A stretch of 64,000 nucleotides of DNA from a virus: IMG/VR virus record IMGVR_UViG_3300049855_000474, positions 1 to 64,000 of that record; one strand, 5' to 3'. Below, piece after piece: positions 4,894 through 18,831 of the stretch. The notes beneath the pieces are model-generated. The model did no database searches, was not told the origin of the DNA, and was given only the letters and a program-made list of their open reading frames with translations. A program made the position numbers and the translations under genes. The number at the start of each line of letters is the position of its first letter. The first letter of the stretch is position 1.

Positions 4894-4917
4894 AATATTA
4901 CATTGGAGTCTAACCGC

Positions 4918-5937
4918 ATGGCGGATCAGAATTATTACGACTTACTCGGTGTTGCGAAAACAGCTACAACAGATGATATCAAAAAGAGCTACAGGAAGTT
5001 AGCTTTAAAATATCATCCAGACCACAATCAAGGAGATAAGAGCTCAGAGGAGACTTTCAAGAAGATCTCAGAAGCGTATGCCACCTTGAGCGATGACCGT
5101 AAACGTAATATCTACGATAATGGCGGCGTTCAACATAGGCAACATAGTTATCAGGATTTCATGAACATCAACCTTGAGGAAATTATGAACAATTTCAGGC
5201 AAGGTAGCGCACAAGAAAATCTAGATCTTCAAACCGACGTTGTAATAGAGCTGAAAGATGCTGTCTATGGAACTAAGGTGGAAGTATCTCTAGACTATAA
5301 CAAAAAGTGCCAACCATGCAAAGGTCTTGGTTCTAAAAATGGACACGCCAAGCAATGCAACAAATGCTTCGGTCGAGGACGTGTATCCGTAGCACAAGGT
5401 GGGTGGAATGTTGCAACAGTCTGCCCAAAATGCAAAGGCACCTGTAACGTACCACTAGACCATGACTGCGGACAATGTAATGGTAAAGGTTCTACTCGTG
5501 TACAACGAAAAATCAAGGTCAATATACCAGCAGGTATCGATAATGGTCAGGTTTTGCGTTTACAAGCACAAGGAGCGGCAGCAAACAATAGAACAGGGGA
5601 TTTGTACGTCAGGGTAAGTGTTCAACCAAACCCGGACTTTGAACGCCACTTCTTCAACCTCGTTACTCCAGTAAAGATCCCATTTGCTACAATCCTTACA
5701 GGTGGGGACATCGAAGTCAAGAACATCAAGGGAGAACTTCTCACTGTACAGGTAGAAGCATGTACACAACCAGGAACACTTCTTAAAGTTCCTGGTCAAG
5801 GTGTGCCTAGCCTTGGGGGAGGTTCTGTAGGTGACTTGCTGGTTGTTGTAGGAATTGAGATACCTACGACGGTAACAGAAGAAGTCAAGCAGAAAGCTCT
5901 AGAGCTACAGCAGGCGATTGAGAACGCAAAGGTGTAA
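4918..5937 (+). CDS. dnaJ: Molecular chaperone DnaJ (type I)
   Basis: J domain with YHPD, four CxxCxGxG/C zinc-finger repeats, C-terminal [14 protein letters not shown] substrate domain. Confidence 0.95.
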
Positions 5938-5958
5938 GAGAACCTGTAAAGGCTTCTC

Positions 5959-8900
5959 ATGAAGTCGGTACTCAAGCACGAAAAAGCCTTCTGTGAAGGT
6001 TGTCCCCTCAACCGAAACAAAGCCAAGAAAACTCATTACATTCCCACCGAAGTCCATTACGATAGAGTGGGTCCGGAAGGTCATGCTGAGGTTGATATCC
6101 TTGTCGTCGGAGATGCTCCAGGTAAGAGCGAAGACGACAATGGAATGCCCTTCACAGGACCCTCAGGCGAAGAGCTGAAAATCTCCCTGAAGAAGATTGG
6201 TATTGAAGGCTCCTTCGCTTTAGCCAATTCTATCAGGTGTCGTCCAACGGATGACGAAGGCAACAATCGCCCACCCTCCATTGAAGAAATTGCTGCTTGC
6301 GGCAACTACATCAAACAGGACTTAATTCAGCTAAAACCCAAGGTTGTTGTCCTTATGGGCAATACAGCCAAGGATATTCTAGCACCAACCCCAGAATGGC
6401 GGACTAAGGGAATTAGCAAGTTATCAGGTGAAATCTTTGTTACAAATGGCGTTACGTACACTGCCACAGTAAACCCCTCCAGCTTTCTACGCAACAATAA
6501 CTATATGGAACGACAGAGGTTCCATCGCCACATCGGCAACATTGGACGAATTCTTTCAGGTGAACAAGGTGCTTTCTCCAGGAAAGGTGTTTCTACACTT
6601 CTTAGAACAGAGAAAGCAGCAATTGATTTTCTGGACCTACTGGAGAACTTTGAAACTGATTTTGTTTGTGTAGACACGGAGACAGAAAATCTAAACCGTG
6701 TAGCACCAAACAAATTAGCCACTATCCAATTTGCTGTAGACAATGATATCGGTTTCGTCCTTCCTCTAGAACACTGGCAATCTCCCTGGACACCAGAGTT
6801 CTTAGAGTACCTTAGGGAGCGGCTAGCTCGCATCTTTAGTAATCCAGAAATCAAAATAGGCGCCTGGGTAGCTCACGGGTCCAAGTTTGACTACGGAAAG
6901 ATCACCAAGTTCTGCCGTATTATTAAGATAGCTCTCCCCATTATGGACCCCATCTTCATGGAGTACCTCCGAGATGAAAATCAAAGGAGAGGCATGGATG
7001 ACGGTGGAGAAGGTGGACTTGATGGTTCTGGTGGTACCAACTTCGATTTAAAGACCATGGCTAAGGACAAGCTGGGGTTCTACTATTACAATGAAAAAAT
7101 ACTAGAGGTCCGAAAAGACGGTAGTCTGGTAGAAGAACCGTTGTGGAATCCTGATAACTCGGTAAGTGAGTTCACTATTTATGCCGGTATGGACGTTTAT
7201 ATCGGTCGCCGTCTCATCTGCTATATCATCAACGAACTAGGACTAACAGAGCATAAAGAAAAATCAATCAACTTTGCTAAGAAGTGGGGTACCCGAGTTA
7301 CCCATCTTCTAACTAAAATTGAAGCCAATGGCTGCTTTGCTGATAAAGACCAATTGGAATACCTACGCAGTGACGACTCCCCGATCCTGAAACGGATGGA
7401 TGAGATTCCAGGGGAAATCACAAGCTCGCCTGAAGGTAAGAAAGCTAACCAGCTGATTCTATCCAAGGATCCTAGAACCAAGGGAATGAAGCCTCTCTTT
7501 GGCAAAGCACCAATTGTATTTGACATCGACAAGAAAGACCACCGAGTAGCTCTGTTGGTCGATACTTGCAAGCTCGAGCCTTTGGCTTACGGAAAGAAGG
7601 AAGGGGAAGCTAAAAGCAAGTACGCCAAGAAGGGCAAGAATGGAGAAATTGATAAAGGAAACGGGGTTCCTTCGATCAATAAGGCGTTCTTCCAGGAATA
7701 TAAAGACCACCCCTTTGCGGCGCTAGTTCAGGAATACGAAGGACTAAAGAAACTGAAGTCCAGCTACCTGAATAGCGTGATGAGCTTTCTGACTGATGAC
7801 ATTATCTACACAAAGCGTGGTCCAAAGTCAAACGCTGATAATTTGTTCGATGGAAGAATCCACCCAACTTTCTGGGACAGTAAAACTGTAACTGGAAGGT
7901 TCGCTGCTTCTGACCCGAACACCCAACAGCTTCCACGCGCCGAGGGTTTTGCCAAAAGCATGATCAAGTCAATGTATGGCGCGGCTCCTGGTCACGTCAT
8001 GCTGGAGGCTGATTTCGGTCAGGCGGAAATTCGTTGGTGGGCTCAAATAGCGAAGGACCAAGAATTCGCTAACTTGTTCAACGGGATGGTGTCTATATTA
8101 GAGGAATTTGAAAGGAATCCAACACCTGAGTTAGCTATTCGAGTATCGAATGAGTGTGACATTCATAAGCAGGTCAGTGCTGCAATGAATCGAGTACCAA
8201 TTGAGCAAGTATCGAAAGATATGCGCCAAGCAGCCAAGGGACTGTGCGTCGCCCCCGGAACTCTAATCCGGACTCCAGAAGGCTTGATTCCTATCGAGGA
8301 AGTAATAAATAGCTGGAAGGGTTCTGTATTGCTGGAAACGCGCAAAGGCGTAGAAGAGGCAAACAGGACTTTCGAGATTACCGTAAATAGAACCCAGAAA
8401 GTGAAAACAAGTAGGGGTTACACAATTCATGGAAGACCCGAGCATCCTGTATTAGTGTGGAGGAGTTGCAAGCTTCAGTTTGTAGAGTTGCAAAATCTCA
8501 ACTCAGAAGACCGTATTGTAACCAGGCGAAATGCCAAGTTGTGGCCTGAGAAATTGGTCAAGTTGGAGCCTTCGATACTAAAGTCTGGGGAAGAAATCTT
8601 CCCCAAAGAAGTTACACCGGACCTAGCTAGGCTACTGGGGTATATTACAAGTGAGGGAACTACAGGATACGAAAAGTTTATCCGTATTCCTAATACAGAT
8701 GAAAGAGTTATTGCTGACCTCAGAGAACTTCTAACATCTAACTTTGGCAAAGAAGCCTTTGCAGAATGTACAGATGATCGAAGTGCGGATAATTGGAAAA
8801 ATATAACTAAATTTACAATAAATTCAACAGCTGCCCGTTACCTTCGAAAACTAGGAGTAGTGGGTATCGAAGATTCGTACACAAAAGTAGTACCCAAAGC

Positions 8901-10326
8901 TATAATGCGGTCTCCGCGTCACGTAGTAATAGAATACCTTCGCGGATATCTTGCTGGGGATGCTTCTTCCAATTTCCACAGAGTTAAAGCCTGTACCGCC
9001 TCAAAACAATTAGCCAAAGAAATTCAAATCCTTCTATTGGACTTGGGGATTGTAGCCAAGCGTGATGGCAGCTACAGGAAGACCAACAAAGGAGAAGGTT
9101 TTTATTGGGATGTCACAGCAGTGGGTAAGGAGGCTGAACGCTGTTGGGCAATTATCCCACCAATCCGTCCTCTGGATGAAGCCTACGAAAAAGAATACAA
9201 CAACGCACAGCTCGATCACATTTACGGACTCCGAGAGTTAGCTAAGAAGTTTGCTGATTCCAACTATCGAGAAAAAGGAAACAAAGAAAACGGGGGTTAT
9301 TGGAAATACCCAGGTTTCCCTTGGACTCGTGCCGAGACTTGGACACTAGATTTCTGCTACAAGCACAAGGAGAAAATTATCAAAGGCTTCAAAGCCCGAG
9401 ATGAGCAACTTGCTTTAGATTTTGAGGAAATCCTTACGCAGGGTTACTTCCTCGATTCAATCGTTGAAAACGAAGTGATCGATCAAGACAACCAAACCGT
9501 CTACGATTTCACCGTTCCAGGCAGCCATTCCTTCGTGACCAATGGAATAGTAGGATCGAACAGCTTTGGCAGTTTATACGGAATGTCGCCTAAGTCACTT
9601 GCTATGCTTGTTAAATGCTCTGAATTTGAAGCTAAGCAATTGATTCAAACGTTCACTAACAAGTTTGAGCGTGCTGGCGGTTGGTTGGAGTATATCGAGG
9701 ATTTTGCAATGGAGAATGGATATGTTATATCGCCATTCGGACGTGCAAGACATCTCGCACCGCTGATCGAACTGAATGAGGGTGCGGCTCGACGGGTAGC
9801 TAGAAACTCACCAATCCAGGGTGCTGCTTCTGATACGACCGCAATGGGGGCTTGGTTAATTCAGGACTGGATTGAGAGGACCAATAGACCTTACAAGATT
9901 TGGAACGTTGTTCACGACGCTATTTCCATAGAAGTTCCCCTTACCAAGGAGGCTATTATAGAAGTTATGGCAGTTATGAAGAACTACATGACTAAGGAAA
10001 TCAACCCGTTCCTAAAGCAGGAATTTAATATCAATCTTATCGTTCCATTAGTTATAGATTTTAAGGTAGGTCTACGCTGGGGTCATTGTAAGACAGTGGA
10101 TCCACTTACGGATATTGATCAATTCGTAGCTACGCTGCAAGAACAGGACCGACGCCTCCATAACGGGGACAAGTGGTGGCAATTGGCTACCGAGCTAGAG
10201 GTAAAGAAGTTGGAGAAGGATTTAAGCAAGATCGAGAAAGAAAAGAAGGAAAACTGGGAGAAAGAGATCGCAAAACGTGTTAGGATGATTGAAGAGCACA
10301 GAAATTCGCTATTGAAGGCTGGTTGA
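5959..10326 (+). CDS. polA: Family A DNA polymerase with N-terminal family-4 uracil-DNA glycosylase-like domain and 3'-5' exonuclease, interrupted by an intein
   Basis: UDG4: CEGCPL, GDAPG, E..G.PF.G.SG, N..RCRP..NRPP...EI.AC; Exo I DTET, Exo II HGSKFD, Exo III YAGMD; Pol motif A DFGQAEIR, motif B RQAAKGL/SFGSLYG, motif C VHDA. Confidence 0.93.
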   Translation: MKSVLKHEKAFCEGCPLNRNKAKKTHYIPTEVHYDRVGPEGHAEVDILVVGDAPGKSEDDNGMPFTGPSGEELKISLKKIGIEGSFALANSIRCRPTDDEGNNRPPSIEEIAACGNYIKQDLIQLKPKVVVLMGNTAKDILAPTPEWRTKGISKLSGEIFVTNGVTYTATVNPSSFLRNNNYMERQRFHRHIGNIGRILSGEQGAFSRKGVSTLLRTEKAAIDFLDLLENFETDFVCVDTETENLNRVAPNKLATIQFAVDNDIGFVLPLEHWQSPWTPEFLEYLRERLARIFSNPEIKIGAWVAHGSKFDYGKITKFCRIIKIALPIMDPIFMEYLRDENQRRGMDDGGEGGLDGSGGTNFDLKTMAKDKLGFYYYNEKILEVRKDGSLVEEPLWNPDNSVSEFTIYAGMDVYIGRRLICYIINELGLTEHKEKSINFAKKWGTRVTHLLTKIEANGCFADKDQLEYLRSDDSPILKRMDEIPGEITSSPEGKKANQLILSKDPRTKGMKPLFGKAPIVFDIDKKDHRVALLVDTCKLEPLAYGKKEGEAKSKYAKKGKNGEIDKGNGVPSINKAFFQEYKDHPFAALVQEYEGLKKLKSSYLNSVMSFLTDDIIYTKRGPKSNADNLFDGRIHPTFWDSKTVTGRFAASDPNTQQLPRAEGFAKSMIKSMYGAAPGHVMLEADFGQAEIRWWAQIAKDQEFANLFNGMVSILEEFERNPTPELAIRVSNECDIHKQVSAAMNRVPIEQVSKDMRQAAKGLCVAPGTLIRTPEGLIPIEEVINSWKGSVLLETRKGVEEANRTFEITVNRTQKVKTSRGYTIHGRPEHPVLVWRSCKLQFVELQNLNSEDRIVTRRNAKLWPEKLVKLEPSILKSGEEIFPKEVTPDLARLLGYITSEGTTGYEKFIRIPNTDERVIADLRELLTSNFGKEAFAECTDDRSADNWKNITKFTINSTAARYLRKLGVVGIEDSYTKVVPKAIMRSPRHVVIEYLRGYLAGDASSNFHRVKACTASKQLAKEIQILLLDLGIVAKRDGSYRKTNKGEGFYWDVTAVGKEAERCWAIIPPIRPLDEAYEKEYNNAQLDHIYGLRELAKKFADSNYREKGNKENGGYWKYPGFPWTRAETWTLDFCYKHKEKIIKGFKARDEQLALDFEEILTQGYFLDSIVENEVIDQDNQTVYDFTVPGSHSFVTNGIVGSNSFGSLYGMSPKSLAMLVKCSEFEAKQLIQTFTNKFERAGGWLEYIEDFAMENGYVISPFGRARHLAPLIELNEGAARRVARNSPIQGAASDTTAMGAWLIQDWIERTNRPYKIWNVVHDAISIEVPLTKEAIIEVMAVMKNYMTKEINPFLKQEFNINLIVPLVIDFKVGLRWGHCKTVDPLTDIDQFVATLQEQDRRLHNGDKWWQLATELEVKKLEKDLSKIEKEKKENWEKEIAKRVRMIEEHRNSLLKAG
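8245..9561 (+). mobile_element. Intein (439 aa) with LAGLIDADG homing endonuclease in polymerase motif B
   Basis: Starts CVAPGTLIRT, block B HGRPEHPV, LAGLIDADG-like LLGYITSEG and YLRGYLAGDAS, ends VYDFTVPGSHSFVTNGIVGSN followed by Ser; removal restores RQAAKGLSFGSLYG. Confidence 0.93.
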
Positions 10327-10528: not shown

Positions 10529-10802
10529 ACTAGTATTACGAGATTTGGATATTTACGCTCTAAGGGCTTCGGAGAAAGATCCCGAGTCAATGGCTCGCTT
10601 TCATCAGGAATGTACTCCAGAACGAATCCTTGCTATCCTGGAGGAATTTAAGGAGATGAAGGAATGGTACGAGGGAGAAGAAGATCTCCGATCCCAAATT
10701 CAAGATCTTCGAGATGACCTTGAAACTGCGGAAGATAAGTGTGGTGATTACCATAGACAGGTTGAGGAGCTACAGGACGAAATAAAGGAGCTGCGAGGAT
10801 GA
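10515..10802 (+). CDS. Coiled-coil protein with Ead/Ea22-like motif
   Basis: FHQECTPERILAILEE resembles Ea22 FIAA.NP.TVLALLDE; acidic coiled coil; ATG after AGGA. Confidence 0.5.
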   Translation: MTVNKLVLRDLDIYALRASEKDPESMARFHQECTPERILAILEEFKEMKEWYEGEEDLRSQIQDLRDDLETAEDKCGDYHRQVEELQDEIKELRG

Positions 10803-11401
10803 CCCCAGATAAGACTCAAATTTCAGCTAAAGATATGAATGTGCTTATATCCCGTCAGGACCAGAAGGAATACTTTCCTTTGCTTGTATACCCAAACAAG
10901 GGTCTTCGAGTAGAAACCAAGGAAGTAACTGACTTCGGACCAGCTTTCCAAGCTATTATCGATAAGATGACTGCTACGATGTACAGGGCTCAAGGTGTTG
11001 GGTTGGCAGCTCCTCAGGTTGGTATTAATGCTAAAGTGTTCATTTTGGACTGCCCTGACGAAGGAAATAACGGACTTCAGGTGTTTGTTAATCCCGAGAT
11101 TATAACAGCCACTCTTTTCAGTAAAGCTATGGAAGGTTGCCTTTCCTTCCCCGGTGTAGTGGAACAAATTGATAGGGCTTCCAGTATTGTAGGTAAAGCA
11201 CAAGACCGATTTGGAAATCCTTTTACTTTCGCAAGCCTAGCAGAAGCTGATACAGACGTCATAAAGCTTTCCGAAGTGGAAGTGGTTGCTGTGCAACACG
11301 AGATTGAGCACCTGCAAGGTATTTTAATGATTGACAAAGTCAGTCATTTGAAGCAACGTTACATGAAGAAAACAGTACAAAAAGTATTGAAGAGCCTGTA
11401 A
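10799..11401 (+). CDS. def: Peptide deformylase
   Basis: Motifs GVGLAAPQVG, EGCLSFP, QHEIEHLQG. Confidence 0.93.
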   Translation: MTPDKTQISAKDMNVLISRQDQKEYFPLLVYPNKGLRVETKEVTDFGPAFQAIIDKMTATMYRAQGVGLAAPQVGINAKVFILDCPDEGNNGLQVFVNPEIITATLFSKAMEGCLSFPGVVEQIDRASSIVGKAQDRFGNPFTFASLAEADTDVIKLSEVEVVAVQHEIEHLQGILMIDKVSHLKQRYMKKTVQKVLKSL

Positions 11402-11413
11402 AGGAATAAAACT

Positions 11414-11824
11414 ATGTGGATGTCGGCTGAGAAGTCTAGTTATTTCGAAGCAAAGTACCCAGAGTTGTGCCCTATCGACCCAAAAGCTGAATTTCAGCAC
11501 TACGGTAGGATGGGGTGCGTTGGTATTGGGTGGTTTGATCGTTTGGATCAGATGTGCAAGGAGTTGTCGGAACTAGGCTTTTTCGTACAGCTGACCTGCG
11601 TCAAACAGAAGTTTGGTCGATTGCGAGTGCATTTTGACCACAACCGTGGAAATACAGAGCAGTACCAAGCTATCCAGGCTATTGTAAAGAGAGCTGAAGA
11701 AGACTGCAATTCGAGTTGTTCTATATGCAGCCTACAGCTGAGCGAGCAGCAGTTATCCCGCTGTTACGGGATTGGCTACCTTTGCGATAGTTGTAGACAA
11801 AAGCATCTTTCCGCATTAGTATAA
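11414..11824 (+). CDS. Conserved phage hypothetical protein with C-terminal Cys pairs
   Basis: GW....VKQKFGRLR....C..C....LCDSC pattern common in phage proteins. Confidence 0.6.
   Translation: MWMSAEKSSYFEAKYPELCPIDPKAEFQHYGRMGCVGIGWFDRLDQMCKELSELGFFVQLTCVKQKFGRLRVHFDHNRGNTEQYQAIQAIVKRAEEDCNSSCSICSLQLSEQQLSRCYGIGYLCDSCRQKHLSALV
11794..11822 (+). promoter_or_regulatory. Sigma-70-like promoter for the kinase cassette (likely leaderless)
   Basis: TAGACA-17 nt-TAGTAT (an overlapping TATAAT at 11820-11825); ATG at 11830 with no SD. Confidence 0.5.
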
Positions 11825-11829
11825 TCCCT

Positions 11830-12564
11830 ATGACAGCCACATTCTCAGATGAAGACTTGCAAGCAGTAGTACTGCAGCTAAAGAGGGCTAATTCGGAACT
11901 TGAGCGCTTCGCTTATGTAGCGTCACATGATTTGAAGGCTCCGCTTAGAGCCATTTCGAACTTAGCGTCTTGGATTAAGGAAGACAGTGACAATAAGTTT
12001 TCTAAGGAATCCGTTGAACATTTCAATATGATGCTCAATAGAGTTTCTAGAATGGAAAAATTGTTGGATGATATTCTAGCCTATGCTAAGGTAGGTAAGA
12101 GAGATAATACTTTCGAGTCGGTCAACCTTGTTGAAATGATTCAAAGCATATTTTATATGCTTCCAAATAAGCGTTTCACGGTCCTAACCGAATCTACAGT
12201 ACCTACTTTTTTTGCTGAAAGGTATCCTCTCGAGCAGGTGCTTCGAAATTTGATTAGTAACTCAATCAAGCACCATCACGCAGGAAAAGGAACTATTACA
12301 GTTAGTATAGAAGAACTACAAAAACATATACAGTTTACAGTTACGGACGATGGTCCTGGAATTCCTAAGGAAAATCAGGCAGAATGCTTCGAGATGTTTC
12401 GAACGCTGAAACCCCGAGATGAGGTTGAAGGGTCCGGAATGGGTCTTGCTTTAGTTAAAAAGATTGTAGAGAACCAAGGTGGGTCAATAGATATTCTACC
12501 CTCTAACAAGGGTTTGAGTATTCGTTTCTTGTGGCCTCGATTCGATCGGTACAGAGAAGAATGA
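11830..12564 (+). CDS. Histidine kinase (phytochrome/Cph1-type HisKA + HATPase) lacking any sensor domain
   Basis: H-box FAYVASHDLKAPL, N-box QVLRNLISNSIKH, G1 DDGPGI, F-box FEMF, G2 GSGMGLA. Confidence 0.93.
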   Translation: MTATFSDEDLQAVVLQLKRANSELERFAYVASHDLKAPLRAISNLASWIKEDSDNKFSKESVEHFNMMLNRVSRMEKLLDDILAYAKVGKRDNTFESVNLVEMIQSIFYMLPNKRFTVLTESTVPTFFAERYPLEQVLRNLISNSIKHHHAGKGTITVSIEELQKHIQFTVTDDGPGIPKENQAECFEMFRTLKPRDEVEGSGMGLALVKKIVENQGGSIDILPSNKGLSIRFLWPRFDRYREE

Positions 12565-12965
12565 GTATTACAATTTTAGTCATTGATGATGATAACGTGG
12601 ATGTGTTAGCCTTACGCAGGTCTTTCAAGAAGCACAAAGTTCTTCGTTATGCCGATCTACAAACGGCTAAAGATGGGCGGCATGCCTTGACTCTCCTTAC
12701 AGGGCAGTGCCCTATCAAACCAACGCTAGTTCTTCTAGACTTAAATATGCCTGGTATGAATGGACTACAATTCCTAGATAATGTCCGGTCTATCCCTTCC
12801 TTGCAATATCTCAGAATACTAGTGTTGACCACGTCTGCTGATGATACCGACATCAAAGCTGCAAACTCCAAATGTATTGTAGGATACGTTACAAAGTCTA
12901 AAGCTGGAAATTATACTGAATTAACCGATCTGCTAAATAATTACTGCAATCTCACGGAGAGTTAA
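12561..12965 (+). CDS. Single-domain response regulator (Rcp1-like)
   Basis: VIDDD, LLDLNMPGMNG, VLTTS, YVTK; ATGA overlap with kinase stop. Confidence 0.9.
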   Translation: MSITILVIDDDNVDVLALRRSFKKHKVLRYADLQTAKDGRHALTLLTGQCPIKPTLVLLDLNMPGMNGLQFLDNVRSIPSLQYLRILVLTTSADDTDIKAANSKCIVGYVTKSKAGNYTELTDLLNNYCNLTES

Positions 12966-12966
12966 G

Positions 12967-13899
12967 TTGCACAAACCCTGGAATATTTTCTTGCTGGAGG
13001 ATGATGAAGCGGATAAGCTGCTTGTGCAGGTAACGCTAAAGCATTCAGGGGTGCCGTTTACGTTGACCCACGCCAAAACTATGGACGAGGCTAGGAGTAT
13101 TTTAGATTCTAGTGGTGCTCTGTTTGACTGTGCTCTACTAGATAGGTCGGTTCCTGGGGGTTGTGGATTAGACTTAGTTAGCCATAATAAACTACAGTCA
13201 GTACCTTGTATCATGCTAACTGGAAATCAGGACGAGACAGTAGCCTTACAAGCACTACAGCGGGGTCTTGAAGATTATATTATGAAGGGTGACATCACCA
13301 GGCACACTCTGGTGCGAGCTATCCGGTACGCTATGGAACGTAATAGTATCAAATGCGCTTTATCTGAAGCGAAAAAGAAACTAGAAGAATTGGTGAAAAC
13401 AGATCACCTGACTGGTCTTTTGAATCGCCGGGGTTTGGAAGAACTGCTTCAACGGCTGCTACAACGAAACTCTAACTTTGAAGAGAATCACGGCGTAATA
13501 CTCATCGATATTGACAACTTCAAGGCTATCAATGATACCTTAGGGTATGATGCTGGAGATGAGGCACTACGATTTGTAGCTACCAAGCTCAGGCTGTGTT
13601 CCCGTCCTTTAGATCATGTAGCTCGTATTGGTGGTGACGAGTTTATCATACTCCTAACAAATGTTGAGATGGAACAATGCGCTGCTATCTCAGAACGAAT
13701 TCGGACTACTTTTGAGGAAACACTACTCAATATAAGGGGATCCGAACTGAACGTAACGGTGAGTATGGGGGTATCGGCATTAAACAATGCCTCTACAGTA
13801 GAGGAACTGTTCAAAGCAACCCAAGCCGCACTTCACTGTAGCAAAAAACAAGGTAAAAACGCTGTGTGTATGAATTCCACAATACCACCAAGCAGGTAG
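12967..13899 (+). CDS. REC-GGDEF diguanylate cyclase
   Basis: REC LLEDD..LLD..MLTG..YIMK; DHLTGLLNRR, DIDNFKAIND, I-site RPLD, RIGGDEF, SMGV, KKQGKN. Confidence 0.93.
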   Translation: MHKPWNIFLLEDDEADKLLVQVTLKHSGVPFTLTHAKTMDEARSILDSSGALFDCALLDRSVPGGCGLDLVSHNKLQSVPCIMLTGNQDETVALQALQRGLEDYIMKGDITRHTLVRAIRYAMERNSIKCALSEAKKKLEELVKTDHLTGLLNRRGLEELLQRLLQRNSNFEENHGVILIDIDNFKAINDTLGYDAGDEALRFVATKLRLCSRPLDHVARIGGDEFIILLTNVEMEQCAAISERIRTTFEETLLNIRGSELNVTVSMGVSALNNASTVEELFKATQAALHCSKKQGKNAVCMNSTIPPSR

Positions 13900-13902
13900 T
13901 TT

Positions 13903-14364
13903 ATGATTGGTCTATTGAAGAAGTTAGGGTCGGTAGCTTGGAATTCCGTAATAGCGGTAGTATCGAATAAAACAAAGTTCCCGGCTGTCAATGAGCGAGA
14001 TCTTCAGGACTTTGCCAGCTATGTGCAGAAAAACACGGCTACTAAAGCACACTACCAAGTTTCTGGAAAGTTTATGGAGTACGGCACCACGCCTAGACGA
14101 TTTCTTTTGACAGTTGAAGCAAACAACACTATACTAATGTCTTTCTTCTTATGTGGTGAGCCTACATTCTCAGCAGTGACTTTTGCGTTAGCAAGAGATT
14201 TCTTTGGAAAGGAACGCACATTTCTATCAAGCTCTTTTCTCTATAGAGAGGATAGTACTGTTTGTTTAAACTGGCATACGGATTTTCCTGTTGTATACTT
14301 AGAGTACATCAATAAGATTTTACGTAGCTCTCGCAGCGTAAAGAGTTCAACAGAACTCAACTAG
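13903..14364 (+). CDS. Hypothetical protein
   Basis: 153 aa ORF directly after the cyclase gene. Confidence 0.6.
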   Translation: MIGLLKKLGSVAWNSVIAVVSNKTKFPAVNERDLQDFASYVQKNTATKAHYQVSGKFMEYGTTPRRFLLTVEANNTILMSFFLCGEPTFSAVTFALARDFFGKERTFLSSSFLYREDSTVCLNWHTDFPVVYLEYINKILRSSRSVKSSTELN

Positions 14365-14385: not shown

Positions 14386-14886
14386 ATGAAACTGAAAGGT
14401 AATAAAATGAGCGACAGAGAAATTAGTGACCGAATTCTATTCCTGTACCTTCGGGATCCCAAGGATCCCAAGCACGTGGCGACTGTTGCCAGGTTCAAGC
14501 AGGGCAATGTCCTGACTTTTGCCTGGGCAATCAACAAGGTGACCACGCTTCAGAGTGGTCAGAAGTTTAGCAACTTTGAAGACTCCTACAAAAGCAAGAC
14601 GGTCCATGACGTGTTCAATAAGGCACGTGGGCGTACGATTGCTGAGGGTCGTCTGGGCTGCCACAAGTCGTCTATCACCATTGAGCTTTACGAGGATGAG
14701 CGTCCGCTTAAAGCTATGCTGGAAACTCTCGCTGGGAACTCCGAGGTAGATGGTGTGGTTATCCCTTCCTTCCTGTCACGCTGGGCTCGCGATAACTTGC
14801 TCGGCATCTACGCGGAGGAGGCAAGGCAGCTCATTGCTGCTCAGATTGAAATAGAAAAGTCTCAAGTCTCTGACGTTAGCCTTTGA
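14386..14886 (+). CDS. Hypothetical protein
   Basis: 166 aa ORF (start may be 14407). Confidence 0.7.
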   Translation: MKLKGNKMSDREISDRILFLYLRDPKDPKHVATVARFKQGNVLTFAWAINKVTTLQSGQKFSNFEDSYKSKTVHDVFNKARGRTIAEGRLGCHKSSITIELYEDERPLKAMLETLAGNSEVDGVVIPSFLSRWARDNLLGIYAEEARQLIAAQIEIEKSQVSDVSL

Positions 14887-15450: not shown

Positions 15451-15478
15451 TTGACAAAATAGCATCCCTTGGTATAAT
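15451..15478 (+). promoter_or_regulatory. Consensus sigma-70 promoter (extended -10)
   Basis: TTGACA-16 nt-TATAAT with TG upstream of the -10. Confidence 0.8.
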
Positions 15479-15484
15479 CAAGGA

Positions 15485-15847
15485 ATGAAATGTTTTAATC
15501 TACTCATCATAGCTCTGCTAACCGCCTGCCTACCTAAACCTTCTATCGATTATCCGACCCTAGATTCTAGGATTGGTAATCCGGTACTGGTTTATGTACC
15601 TCCACGTCATGTAATTCCCGCGCCTTCCCCAGAGCAATTCCAGCCTAGAGACCCTGTGTGGAATTTCACTACGCAAGCCTCCCCGCCTGCAAATAGTGTT
15701 TATGAGGAAGAGCTTCGACGGGCTAATGAGGAGCGGAAGCTACAACAATACCACATTGTCCGAACAGTTTGCTATCCAGCATCGTACGCCTGTAGACCCT
15801 ACGTGCGCTGTTACTACGATACCTACGGCATGTTGACCTGCTATTGA
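15485..15847 (+). CDS. Putative lipoprotein
   Basis: Signal MKCFNLLIIALLTA-C lipobox; Pro-rich; Cys-rich C-terminus. Confidence 0.65.
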   Translation: MKCFNLLIIALLTACLPKPSIDYPTLDSRIGNPVLVYVPPRHVIPAPSPEQFQPRDPVWNFTTQASPPANSVYEEELRRANEERKLQQYHIVRTVCYPASYACRPYVRCYYDTYGMLTCY

Positions 15848-17090: not shown

Positions 17091-17645
17091 ATGGATAATA
17101 ACTGTACCGTATCCGATTCCCCAGTAAAAGTTAGTAAGGCAGTGTCCTACACCTTTCATTTTAAACCATATGGATGGGCAATTTACACAGTTAACGAAAC
17201 TACGGGGGAATTTCATATAACTAGTGATTGGGGAAGTTTTTCCCACCGTTGGGATCCCAAGAATCTAGGTGAGAAAACTTTTCAACAGTTTCTGATTAAG
17301 GCAGAACCTTCTTATATCTGTAGAAAGTTTGCTGCCGCAAATAAAGAGCTAAATGAAGTAGTAGACGAAGAAGAGACGCTAAAAGCTATTAAGACACGGA
17401 TTCTAGAAGATCGTAGAAGTCGATTTATACCTTCCAAGGAAGAAGCAGAGTTGCTTCTTAGTTTGGCTGAAGAGTGGGCTGATGCCGATTTCTCGGAAGC
17501 TGTAATACCTTCCGAATTTTTCGATTACTCTTATGAAGACTTTCTACATACTAAGGAATCTTACACAGCGAAAGTAGTTACTACGCTTCTACTCCCCGCT
17601 TTCCAGAGTTATTTAAAAGAAAGCAAAGTACCAAACCATGATTAA
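17091..17645 (+). CDS. Conserved phage hypothetical protein
   Basis: 184 aa ORF coupled to both neighbours. Confidence 0.65.
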   Translation: MDNNCTVSDSPVKVSKAVSYTFHFKPYGWAIYTVNETTGEFHITSDWGSFSHRWDPKNLGEKTFQQFLIKAEPSYICRKFAAANKELNEVVDEEETLKAIKTRILEDRRSRFIPSKEEAELLLSLAEEWADADFSEAVIPSEFFDYSYEDFLHTKESYTAKVVTTLLLPAFQSYLKESKVPNHD

Positions 17646-18831
17646 CCGAGCCCACAAAATCGAGTTAGACCCCACTGTTGCGCAGGCGATATACTTCGCT
17701 AAAGCGTGTGGGGTCGCTCGTTTTACTTACAACTGGGCTCTAGTGGAATGGAAGAAGCAATACCAGGAAGGTAGTAAGCATAAAGAGTTTGCTATCAATA
17801 AGCAACTAAACTCAATTAAATCAATTGAGTTTCCTTGGATGTATGAAGTAACTAAGCGGGCTCCACAACAGGCAGTTAAGAACTTAGGCTCAGCGTACAA
17901 GCGTTTCTTAAAGAAGCAAGGTAAATATCCTCGATTTAAGAAGAAGGGTGTTCATGATAGCTTCAGAGCCGATAACGGACCTGTAGATAAATATAGTCAT
18001 GCTGTCAAGATCATCGGAAAAGAAGTGATTTTACCTCGTGTAGGTAAAGTAAGAATGAAACAAACACTTAGATTTAACAACGGAAGGATAATTTCAGTTA
18101 CTGTTTCTAGGGAAGCGCATAAATGGTTTGCTAGTATTTTATTAGAGATCGAACACACTAAACCAATCCGTGAGAACCAAGCGGTGGTTGGGGTGGATCT
18201 TGGCATCAAAAGTCTAGCAGTCCTTAGTGACGGAACAGTATTTGAAAATCCAAAAGCATTAAGGAGCAACTTAAAGAAACTAAAACGACTTTCTCGGTCA
18301 CTGTCTAGAAAGCAGAAAGGTTCTGCTAACAGAAAGAAAGCTCGTATGAAATTAGCTCGATTACATTATCGGATAAGCTGTATTAGAAAAGACGCCCTCC
18401 ATAAGGTAACCACGTTCTTGACTAAGAAGTTCACTTTAATTGGGGTTGAGGATCTCAATGTTAGTGGGATGGTTAGGAATAGGAAACTCGCCAGAGCCCT
18501 TAGTGATGTTGGTTTTGGTGAGTTTAGAAGGCAGTTGACTTACAAATCAGAACTTTACAGCTCTAATTTGTTTGTGGCTGACAGATGGTTTCCTAGTTCA
18601 AAGACATGTTCTCAATGTGGACTTGTAAAAGAGACACTGGAGCTATCAGAACGATCCTGGTGTTGCCTTGCGTGTAATACGATACACGATCGAGATGTAA
18701 ATGCAGCTATTAATTTAAAGATGTTGGCGGAGAGTTCCTCCGTGTCAGTCTGTGGAGCGGATGTCAGCCTCGGTCTCGCGACCGAGCAGACCGTGATGAA
18801 GCAGGAACCAGGTAATACCTATGTTGACTAG
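17638..18831 (+). CDS. tnpB: RNA-guided endonuclease TnpB (IS607-like), solo, no tnpA in window
   Basis: HTH RAHKIELDPT..G.AR..YNWAL; RuvC D (VGVDLG), E (VEDLNV), D (HDRDVNAA); Zn finger CSQC..CLAC. Confidence 0.95.
   Translation: MINRAHKIELDPTVAQAIYFAKACGVARFTYNWALVEWKKQYQEGSKHKEFAINKQLNSIKSIEFPWMYEVTKRAPQQAVKNLGSAYKRFLKKQGKYPRFKKKGVHDSFRADNGPVDKYSHAVKIIGKEVILPRVGKVRMKQTLRFNNGRIISVTVSREAHKWFASILLEIEHTKPIRENQAVVGVDLGIKSLAVLSDGTVFENPKALRSNLKKLKRLSRSLSRKQKGSANRKKARMKLARLHYRISCIRKDALHKVTTFLTKKFTLIGVEDLNVSGMVRNRKLARALSDVGFGEFRRQLTYKSELYSSNLFVADRWFPSSKTCSQCGLVKETLELSERSWCCLACNTIHDRDVNAAINLKMLAESSSVSVCGADVSLGLATEQTVMKQEPGNTYVD

Follow-up and report, generated by a model that had tools for sequence, protein, structure and literature searches.

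Cyclic di-GMP (c-di-GMP) governs the choice of bacteria between swimming and settling and controls the pili, flagella and surface polysaccharides that are the receptors of most phages. The closest described cyclases, DgcR of Leptospira biflexa (6zxb, 6zxc and 6zxm), PleD of Caulobacter (1w25, 2v0n and 2wb4) and WspR (3bre and 3i5a), are built of one or two receivers, a linker and a GGDEF domain; DgcR and WspR have one receiver and PleD has two, and the kinase that feeds WspR is of the chemosensory CheA type. The closest described kinase–receiver pairs are Cph1–Rcp1 and BphP–BphR, in which a HisKA transmitter with an SHDLxxPL H-box stands beside a single-domain receiver. Among viruses, PB1-like Pseudomonas phages encode the YIP peptides, which raise c-di-GMP by activating YfiN, a cyclase of the host (PMC8085984; PMC11461919). 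Here we analysed a stretch of 64,000 nucleotides (the window) that forms the first 64 kb of one linear 153,375-bp contig, the IMG/VR virus record IMGVR_UViG_3300049855_000474, and that carries a three-gene cassette of a sensor-less class I histidine kinase (HK), a stand-alone receiver (REC) and a REC-GGDEF diguanylate cyclase (DGC). The phage DGC shares with DgcR, PleD and WspR the acceptor Asp, the metal- and guanine-binding residues, the GGDEF motif and the RxxD site, and it differs from them in being phage-encoded and in having a sensor-less kinase in the same unit. HK and REC resemble the Cph1 and BphP pairs, but the phage unit lacks the PAS-GAF-PHY module and adds a REC-GGDEF output. The likely reading is that the virus encodes a self-contained two-component pathway by which c-di-GMP production is driven in infected cells.

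The cassette encodes a kinase, a receiver and a cyclase with intact motifs

The three genes lie on the same strand as the surrounding replication and nucleotide-metabolism genes (Table 1); the HK stop and the REC start share the sequence ATGA, and 1 nt separates the REC stop from the TTG start of DGC. They are flanked by phage-type genes, namely a uracil-DNA glycosylase–PolA fusion (UDG-PolA) with an intein, a peptide deformylase gene and NT5C, and their GC content of 0.40–0.44 equals that of the surroundings. The list of open reading frames (ORFs), the Pfam matches and the flanks thus agree with the initial annotation of this DNA, which had described three tightly packed, co-directional genes amid phage genes and had also reported all of their catalytic motifs as intact; these motifs proved to be present and invariant in relatives, as detailed below. 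The two receiver domains and the GGDEF domain of the cassette are the only ones on the 153-kb fragment. No Hpt domain (PF01627) was found in the cassette or on this fragment, from which ~64% of the genome is missing, and the unit, as encoded, is therefore one kinase with two receivers, which does not support the phosphorelay, in the strict sense, that had been proposed.

Pfam searches with HK returned HisKA (1.4e-10) and HATPase_c (3.6e-25) and no further domain. The protein consists of a short N-terminal helix, a dimerization and histidine phosphotransfer (DHp) domain with H33 in the H-box SHDLKAPLR, and a catalytic and ATP-binding (CA) domain, and it starts 32 residues before the H-box His, which upholds the earlier view of a kinase without a sensor domain. 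An alignment of 15 sequences, made up of the window HK and 11 close homologues (12 phage-clade sequences) and three outgroups, indicated that H33, N144, D173, G175 and G177 (DxGxG), F187/F190 and G203/G205 (G2 box) are invariant; the H-box His in the DHp domain and the N, G1, F and G2 boxes of class I HisKA kinases are all present. In HisKA kinases an acidic residue at H+1 is required for kinase activity, and Thr or Asn at H+4 is required for phosphatase activity. Because HK keeps an acidic H+1 (Asp) and carries Ala at H+4, where phosphatase activity needs Thr or Asn, it is, by analogy, probably kinase-biased. Its best PDB matches were 8f71 and bacteriophytochrome kinases. Complex prediction for an HK dimer with the receiver domain of DGC gave a score of 0.00, a result that has no bearing on whether they bind.

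Isolated DHp-CA fragments of many kinases usually autophosphorylate constitutively in vitro, and 11 of the 12 clade kinases have no recognisable input domain. Both points argue against a kinase that is not signal-independent, that is, one whose DHp/CA core responds to ATP/ADP, to the free REC or to a protein of phage or host, so that the cassette would still act as a sensor. We regard such regulation as very unlikely, although three observations would fit it. Approximately 20 residues ahead of the H-box are conserved, L17, E23 and L24 being invariant in the alignment; in one relative (L003), 85 residues in which no domain could be recognised extend the kinase at its N-terminus, lying directly after the deformylase gene in place of the non-conserved upstream ORF of the window; and the input-less kinase that precedes a small receiver on the cellular contig L012 (described below) is presumably regulated.

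The stand-alone REC matched Pfam Response_reg (2.2e-15) over nearly its whole length. The motifs IDDD, LLDLNMPG (with the acceptor Asp), LTTS and TKSK (with the Lys) are conserved in five REC orthologues, and the protein thus has the acidic pocket, acceptor Asp, Thr and Lys of single-domain CheY/Rcp1-like receivers, without an output domain. Its best PDB matches (2qvg, 6xvu and 8avv; a bacteriophytochrome–response regulator fusion, RcpA and Rcp1) are phytochrome-associated receivers.

DGC matched Response_reg (2e-11) and GGDEF (6e-42) and is laid out as a receiver, a helical linker, an RxxD product-inhibition site (I-site) and a GGDEF active site. In an alignment of 17 sequences, 15 of them clade members, the invariant residues included D12, D59 (the acceptor), T85 and K107 in the receiver and D181/D183, N189, D198 and GGDEF at 222–226 in the cyclase domain; the I-site R213-P-L-D216, of which R213 and D216 are invariant, is followed by the five residues HVARI and then by GGDEF. 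The protein matched DgcR over its full length (6zxm, 1e-28) and also matched PleD, and it combines a receiver, a GGDEF domain, the metal- and guanine-binding residues (D327, N335 and D344 of PleD) and RxxD in the manner of PleD, WspR and DgcR. In the HMMER alignment, N189 and D198 fall on the guanine-binding Asn and Asp of PleD, D198 taking the position of PleD D344. Hypr enzymes carry Ser or Thr at this position, which is Asp in 17/17 of the aligned sequences. Because of D198, the product is expected to be c-di-GMP and not the cyclic GMP–AMP (cGAMP) of Hypr enzymes, as the initial annotation had predicted from the same residue.

The cassette is conserved across one lineage of very large phages

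The order HK-REC-DGC was found on seven other independent contigs, namely L001 (133 kb, 34% complete, and the same record as L026 of IMG/VR), L002 (100 kb), L003 (27 kb), L024 (5 kb) and three Logan contigs, on which it was read from gene tables; a 1.2-kb fragment (L025) carries the REC C-terminus, a DGC (86% identical) and the start of a downstream ORF (ORF-A). Overlaps or 0–1-nt gaps were found alike wherever the relatives' DNA could be compared, and the common neighbourhood runs from UDG-PolA with intein through peptide deformylase, the cassette, ORF-A and a second downstream ORF (ORF-B) to NT5C and PhoH. Protein searches returned 14 same-length clusters for DGC at 50–86% identity, followed by a drop to ≤38%, and 11 same-length clusters for HK at 53–72% identity, followed by a drop to ≤52%, and the HK and DGC clusters co-occur on the same contigs. 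The phage DGCs (15) and HKs (12) each formed a monophyletic group with support 100 in FastTree trees, well apart from the cellular homologues.

The divergence of the cassette tracks that of the backbone genes PolA and PhoH. Between the window and L002, identities were 61% for HK, 63% for REC, 64% for DGC, 61% for PolA and 56% for PhoH; the corresponding values were 59, 56, 53, 58 and 58% between the window and L001, and 68, 67, 56, 73 and 67% between L001 and L002. Synonymous sites of the cassette are saturated, the proportion of differing synonymous sites (pS) being 0.65–1.0 and that of nonsynonymous sites (pN) 0.08–0.37; pN/pS was used since dN/dS was mostly not computable at this saturation, and the computable cases gave 0.04–0.16. 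Collectively, recurrence, co-divergence and pN/pS exclude mis-assembly and show that the cassette has long been vertically inherited under purifying selection as a stable trait of one very large phage lineage. A recent capture is not borne out; the cassette is an old feature of the whole lineage.

The contig itself belongs to a tailed phage. PHROGs searches identified a major head protein (phrog_2522, 2.4e-59), a large terminase (phrog_17415, 2.8e-114) and a head–tail connector (phrog_17327, 3e-24), so that the head, terminase large subunit and connector expected of Caudoviricetes are on one molecule; Pfam terminase families PF17289 and PF03237 had no match on the contig, and the hallmarks came from PHROGs. 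CheckV estimated the 153-kb contig as 36% complete, and the genome of this very large phage is therefore probably ~400 kb. All three cassette proteins come from typically bacterial families, and many GGDEF matches in IMG/VR lie at prophage-like contig ends that resemble host flanks, as would be the case if a host chromosomal fragment had been mis-assembled or mis-binned into a viral contig. We nevertheless rejected mis-assembly or host contamination, which the initial annotation had named among the findings that would refute it and which is now barely credible: the same phage neighbourhood surrounds the cassette on the seven independent assemblies, which come from different samples, the three genes co-diverge with PolA and PhoH, their GC content is even with the surroundings, and the phage hallmark genes are on the contig.

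Table 1. Positions of the cassette, its neighbours and other features mentioned in the text
Feature	Size	Molecule	Position	Strand	Remarks
Sensor-less class I histidine kinase (HK)	244 aa	window	11830..12564	+	ORF list, Pfam
Stand-alone receiver (REC), Rcp1/RcpA-like single-domain response regulator	134 aa	window	12561..12965	+	ORF list, Pfam
REC-GGDEF diguanylate cyclase (DGC), DgcR/PleD type	310 aa	window	12967..13899	+	ORF list, Pfam
ORF-A	153 aa	window	13903..14364	+	directly after DGC; possible fourth gene of the unit
ORF-B	166 aa	window	14386..14886	+	after the cassette in 5/5 relatives with DNA downstream of DGC
Cys-rich ORF	136 aa	window	11414..11824	+	TAA 5 nt before the HK ATG; not conserved in relatives
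Promoter-like hexamers TAGACA-17-TAGTAT		window	11794..11822	+	9/12 consensus match, within the upstream ORF at its 3′ end
Sigma-70 consensus TTGACA-16-TATAAT, upstream TG		window	15451-15478	+	12/12 match
Small Cys-/Tyr-rich protein		window	15485-15847		lipoprotein-like N-terminus
DnaJ		window	4903-5937	+	J domain, Zn-finger, C-terminal domain
UDG-exonuclease-PolA fusion	1455 aa	window	5959-10326	+	split by intein with LAGLIDADG domain
Peptide deformylase		window	10799-11401	+	near the polymerase
TnpB (OrfB_IS605 + Cas12f1-like TNB)		window	17638-18831	+	without tnpA
Ribonucleotide reductase large subunit	1317 aa	L005	60-4013 (genome 84060-88013)	-	HNH-endonuclease-like insertion, probably intein
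Tubulin/FtsZ-family protein, TubZ/PhuZ-like		L005	9379-10650 (genome 93379-94650)	-	beyond the window
HK of relative L003	329 aa	L003	377-1366	+	85-residue N-terminal extension
TnpB, first copy		L001	4697-5731	-	
TnpB, second copy		L001	7484-8518	+	
REC-GGDEF		L034 (102 kb, 28% complete)	8001-8948		
REC-GGDEF-HD-GYP		L053 (82 kb, 77% complete)	7947-9485		
PAS-GGDEF-EAL		L042 (165 kb, 74% complete)	6816-9401		
Bare GGDEF		L048 (388 kb, 98% complete)	7806-8477		

A proposed pathway for c-di-GMP synthesis in the infected cell

In the pathway that we propose, HK, consisting of DHp and CA alone, would autophosphorylate on H33 whenever it is made, and the phosphoryl group would move to both of the receivers encoded downstream. 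Phosphorylation of D59 would rearrange the coiled-coil-linked DGC dimer, as in DgcR, WspR and PleD, and the rearranged enzyme would condense two GTP to c-di-GMP, whose level the RxxD I-site would limit through product inhibition. The stand-alone REC may compete for phosphate as a sink or timer, or may have a second, protein-binding output; with no kinase-borne phosphatase predicted, the role of phosphate sink or timer is a plausible one for this second receiver. As HK has no input domain, the input would be gene expression during infection and not an environmental signal. The output would be a forced high c-di-GMP level in the host, with less motility, fewer pili and flagella and more matrix, and the payoff could be the exclusion of competing phages or the keeping of the infected cell in a sessile state.

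Several points weigh against this pathway. We infer the kinase activity, the choice of receiver partner and the c-di-GMP output from the encoded proteins, and the effect on the host likewise; the case for kinase bias from Ala at H+4 draws on knowledge of other HisKA kinases; the extension in L003 means that the lineage is not uniformly input-less; and neither a PilZ domain (c-di-GMP receptor) nor an EAL domain (phosphodiesterase) was found on the 153-kb fragment, again with ~64% of the genome missing. In a quite different purpose, HK and the free REC would mainly cross-talk with host two-component proteins, either phosphorylating regulators of the host or withdrawing phosphate from its kinases, and the cyclase would be one output among several. 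The stand-alone REC is as conserved as HK and DGC and no output can be read from its sequence, and the transmitter subfamily of HK is large and occurs in many bacterial sensors (~50% identity), so that matching host receivers may exist. However, HK, REC and DGC invariably occur as a set with coupled translation, as is typical of cognate partners; through its deep divergence DGC has retained all of its catalytic and I-site residues, so that its product matters; and no host target can be named. We therefore take cross-talk to be an improbable main purpose.

Another possibility is that the phage makes c-di-GMP for its own use, either as a signal to a phage effector (in timing or superinfection sensing) or as a decoy against cyclic-nucleotide defences. 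The conserved I-site would suit such a use, since it implies a regulated rather than a maximised level, and so would ORF-A, which lies directly after DGC or overlaps it in four of five relatives (L001, L002, L024 and L025, and not L003) and is lineage-restricted, with only 12 representatives among 1.84 billion proteins. An AlphaFold (AF2) model of ORF-A from five sequences (pLDDT 82) showed a confident, compact alpha/beta fold in which a helix leads into a four-strand sheet, a second helix and three further short strands, and a long helix forms the C-terminus. Structure searches with this model returned no Foldseek match at E ≤ 0.001, and the best VIA-align Z of ~7, to common alpha/beta arrangements (KA1/AMPK-CTD-like), is within the noise range. 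ORF-B is a member of a widespread phage-only hypothetical family, all of whose Atlas neighbours are viral hypotheticals, and this family is not tied to cyclases. We examined both ORFs as c-di-GMP readers and found no support for this role: they have no PilZ domain and no Pfam match, Atlas was uninformative, and at present neither has a tie to c-di-GMP. The lack of a detected PilZ or other known c-di-GMP-binding family, the absence of ORF-A from L003 and its want of an informative structural match all count against use by the phage itself, and we know of no defence system that is countered by c-di-GMP; this explanation is, in our judgement, decidedly improbable. A wider conception, which we hold to be unlikely, is an autonomous viral circuit composed of an always-on kinase, a sink or timer, a cyclase and an own, unrecognised c-di-GMP reader (ORF-A or another protein), with the messenger reporting infection to the phage. 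If it were true, c-di-GMP would serve developmental timing or superinfection control besides, or instead of, host reprogramming.

Returning to the proposed pathway from HK to forced host c-di-GMP, its components have been kept intact for as long as the phage DNA polymerase lineage has diverged, and this long retention argues that setting host c-di-GMP from inside may be a selected part of the infection strategy. Such a compact three-gene system bears on what a virus gains by forcing high c-di-GMP and on how an input-less kinase works with two receivers.

Relatives of the kinase and the origin of the cassette

The best longer homologues of HK (38–52% identity; 47–52% for the nearest non-phage kinases) have PAS, GAF, CHASE or HAMP inputs; their sources are diverse bacteria, such as Shewanella, Rhodoferax, Psychromonas and Chloroflexi. 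None of them has a phytochrome module, and no long form occurs in the phage clade; HK itself lacks the bilin-binding PAS-GAF-PHY module of phytochrome-type kinases. A phytochrome ancestry of HK was thus unsupported by the longer-homologue search. The likeness to Cph1/Rcp1 that had been noted earlier therefore holds in part: by their PDB matches, the transmitter and REC fall into phytochrome-associated subfamilies, but the phytochrome module is missing from the longer homologues.

An equally short kinase was found at the same distance on L012, a 109-kb cellular contig that is probably cyanobacterial and encodes a photosystem II protein; this kinase, of 248 aa, is 47% identical to HK and is followed by a 146-aa receiver. 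The L012 pair resembles the first two genes of the cassette, but it is followed by hybrid kinases and not by a cyclase, and its context is cellular. The nearest cellular DGC is 38% identical and lies on a 449-kb contig, adjoining a ParA-like gene and with no kinase beside it. The initial annotation had suggested that the phage captured the operon and lost the input domain; this is unproven, since kinases with sensors and kinases just as short as HK both occur among bacterial relatives at ~50% identity, and the sequences therefore reveal neither the donor nor the ancestral architecture. Joint capture of the three genes and their assembly within the phage are both possible.

Transcription of the cassette and neighbouring promoter-like sequences

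An own promoter with a leaderless start had also been assigned to the cassette. The hexamers in question match the consensus at chance level, nine 9-of-12 matches being found in a 5.3-kb stretch where shuffles gave 8.9, and they are not conserved, the region upstream of HK being wholly different in L001, L002, L003 and L024. Genome-wide, -10-like hexamers are not enriched ahead of ORFs (10/194 vs 3.9% background), and the RNA around the HK start is unstructured (z = +1.6), which suggests nothing special. The assigned promoter was accordingly abandoned. Over the whole contig, the 25 nt ahead of predicted starts contain the motif TGTAAA(G) about eight times as often as expected (13 vs 1.55), and the motif is not over-represented across the window (12 vs 11.9); copies in the window include those at 5945 and 11397–11403. 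The motif may serve as a promoter or start element specific to the phage, and a sigma factor is encoded on the contig. The copy at 11397–11403 precedes the Cys-rich ORF, whose stop lies just ahead of HK, and the cassette is therefore probably co-transcribed with this upstream ORF in the present phage, with coupled translation.

A perfect sigma-70 consensus with an upstream TG was found at another place in the window, directly before the gene of a small protein with a lipoprotein-like N-terminus (Table 1). This match is far better than that of the hexamers proposed for the cassette.

Other genes of the viral contig

Besides the sigma factor, PHROGs searches identified a UvsX-like recombinase, and the contig also encodes SbcC, a helicase, an RNA ligase, a clamp loader, a DNA methylase and PhoH, together with three tRNAs; several large ORFs had no PHROG or Pfam match, and a tyrosine integrase was not found on this ~36%-complete fragment, which leaves the lytic lifestyle assumed by the initial annotation unproven. 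The UDG-exonuclease-PolA fusion with its intein recurs in L001 and L002, with 58–73% identity among the three phages. Full-length DnaJ and peptide deformylase, both kept in L002, are host-like proteostasis genes that adjoin the polymerase gene. Beyond the window, the contig encodes a ribonucleotide reductase large subunit with an insertion and a tubulin/FtsZ-family protein, the latter matching Pfam Tubulin (1.1e-17) and the C-terminal domain TubZ-like_C (2.8e-5).

The window also carries a TnpB gene, and in L001 the stretch immediately upstream of the cassette has a TnpB copy on either side. The closest genomic relatives of TnpB (56–65% identity) are in metagenome-assembled genomes of Burkholderiales and Polaromonas. 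This relationship to Burkholderiales and the common use of Shine-Dalgarno sequences are weak hints to the host.

Comparison with phage-encoded cyclases and other known systems

Blastn against GenBank phages found no close relatives, and tblastn against phage collections found matches of ≤40% identity only, mostly in contaminated or prophage records. Single-protein scans of IMG/VR returned nothing, and an alignment-based scan returned one clade member (L026, which is L001) among 236 GGDEF-encoding stretches, many of which are probably host flanks. Kinase genes within 8 kb were looked for in the best 80 of these 236 stretches, and a histidine kinase was found only in the clade member and in none of the other 79. 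The other IMG/VR phage cyclases are ≤36% identical to the window DGC and include diverse architectures on large contigs, from bare GGDEF to REC-GGDEF, REC-GGDEF-HD-GYP and PAS-GGDEF-EAL (Table 1). With no kinase nearby, the receiver-containing cyclases among them would depend on a host kinase, and the cassette raises the question of whether such receiver-GGDEF genes of other large phages plug into host kinases. Phage-borne cyclases are therefore not rare in metagenomes, and big phages may repeatedly carry c-di-GMP turnover genes, a cargo that has received little discussion; the self-contained kinase–receiver–cyclase unit was found, in these scans, only in the present lineage. In the synteny check in virome data that had been advised, the three-gene order thus recurred, and in these scans it did so in one phage lineage only.

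In the literature, single phage GGDEF genes are represented by the 'diguanylate cyclase' of Bacillus phage SP-15 (KT624200), and virome studies have annotated single cyclase or phosphodiesterase genes, with mucR-like genes in sargassum viromes (PMC11295528). The receiver domains mentioned in a comparative survey of 224 jumbo phages are all of a divergent, non-two-component form (PMC7824862). Full-text literature searches found no published description of a phage cassette of this kind, in agreement with the initial annotation, to which no complete one in a lytic phage was known. A functional parallel is YIP, through which a phage likewise raises c-di-GMP in the infected cell and for which reduced motility or superinfection exclusion has been discussed as the payoff (PMC8085984); YIP is a small peptide that acts on a host cyclase, whereas here the phage encodes both the cyclase and its kinase. 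Compared with the known systems, the three proteins are ordinary members of known families, and what is new is their viral, self-contained and deeply conserved setting.

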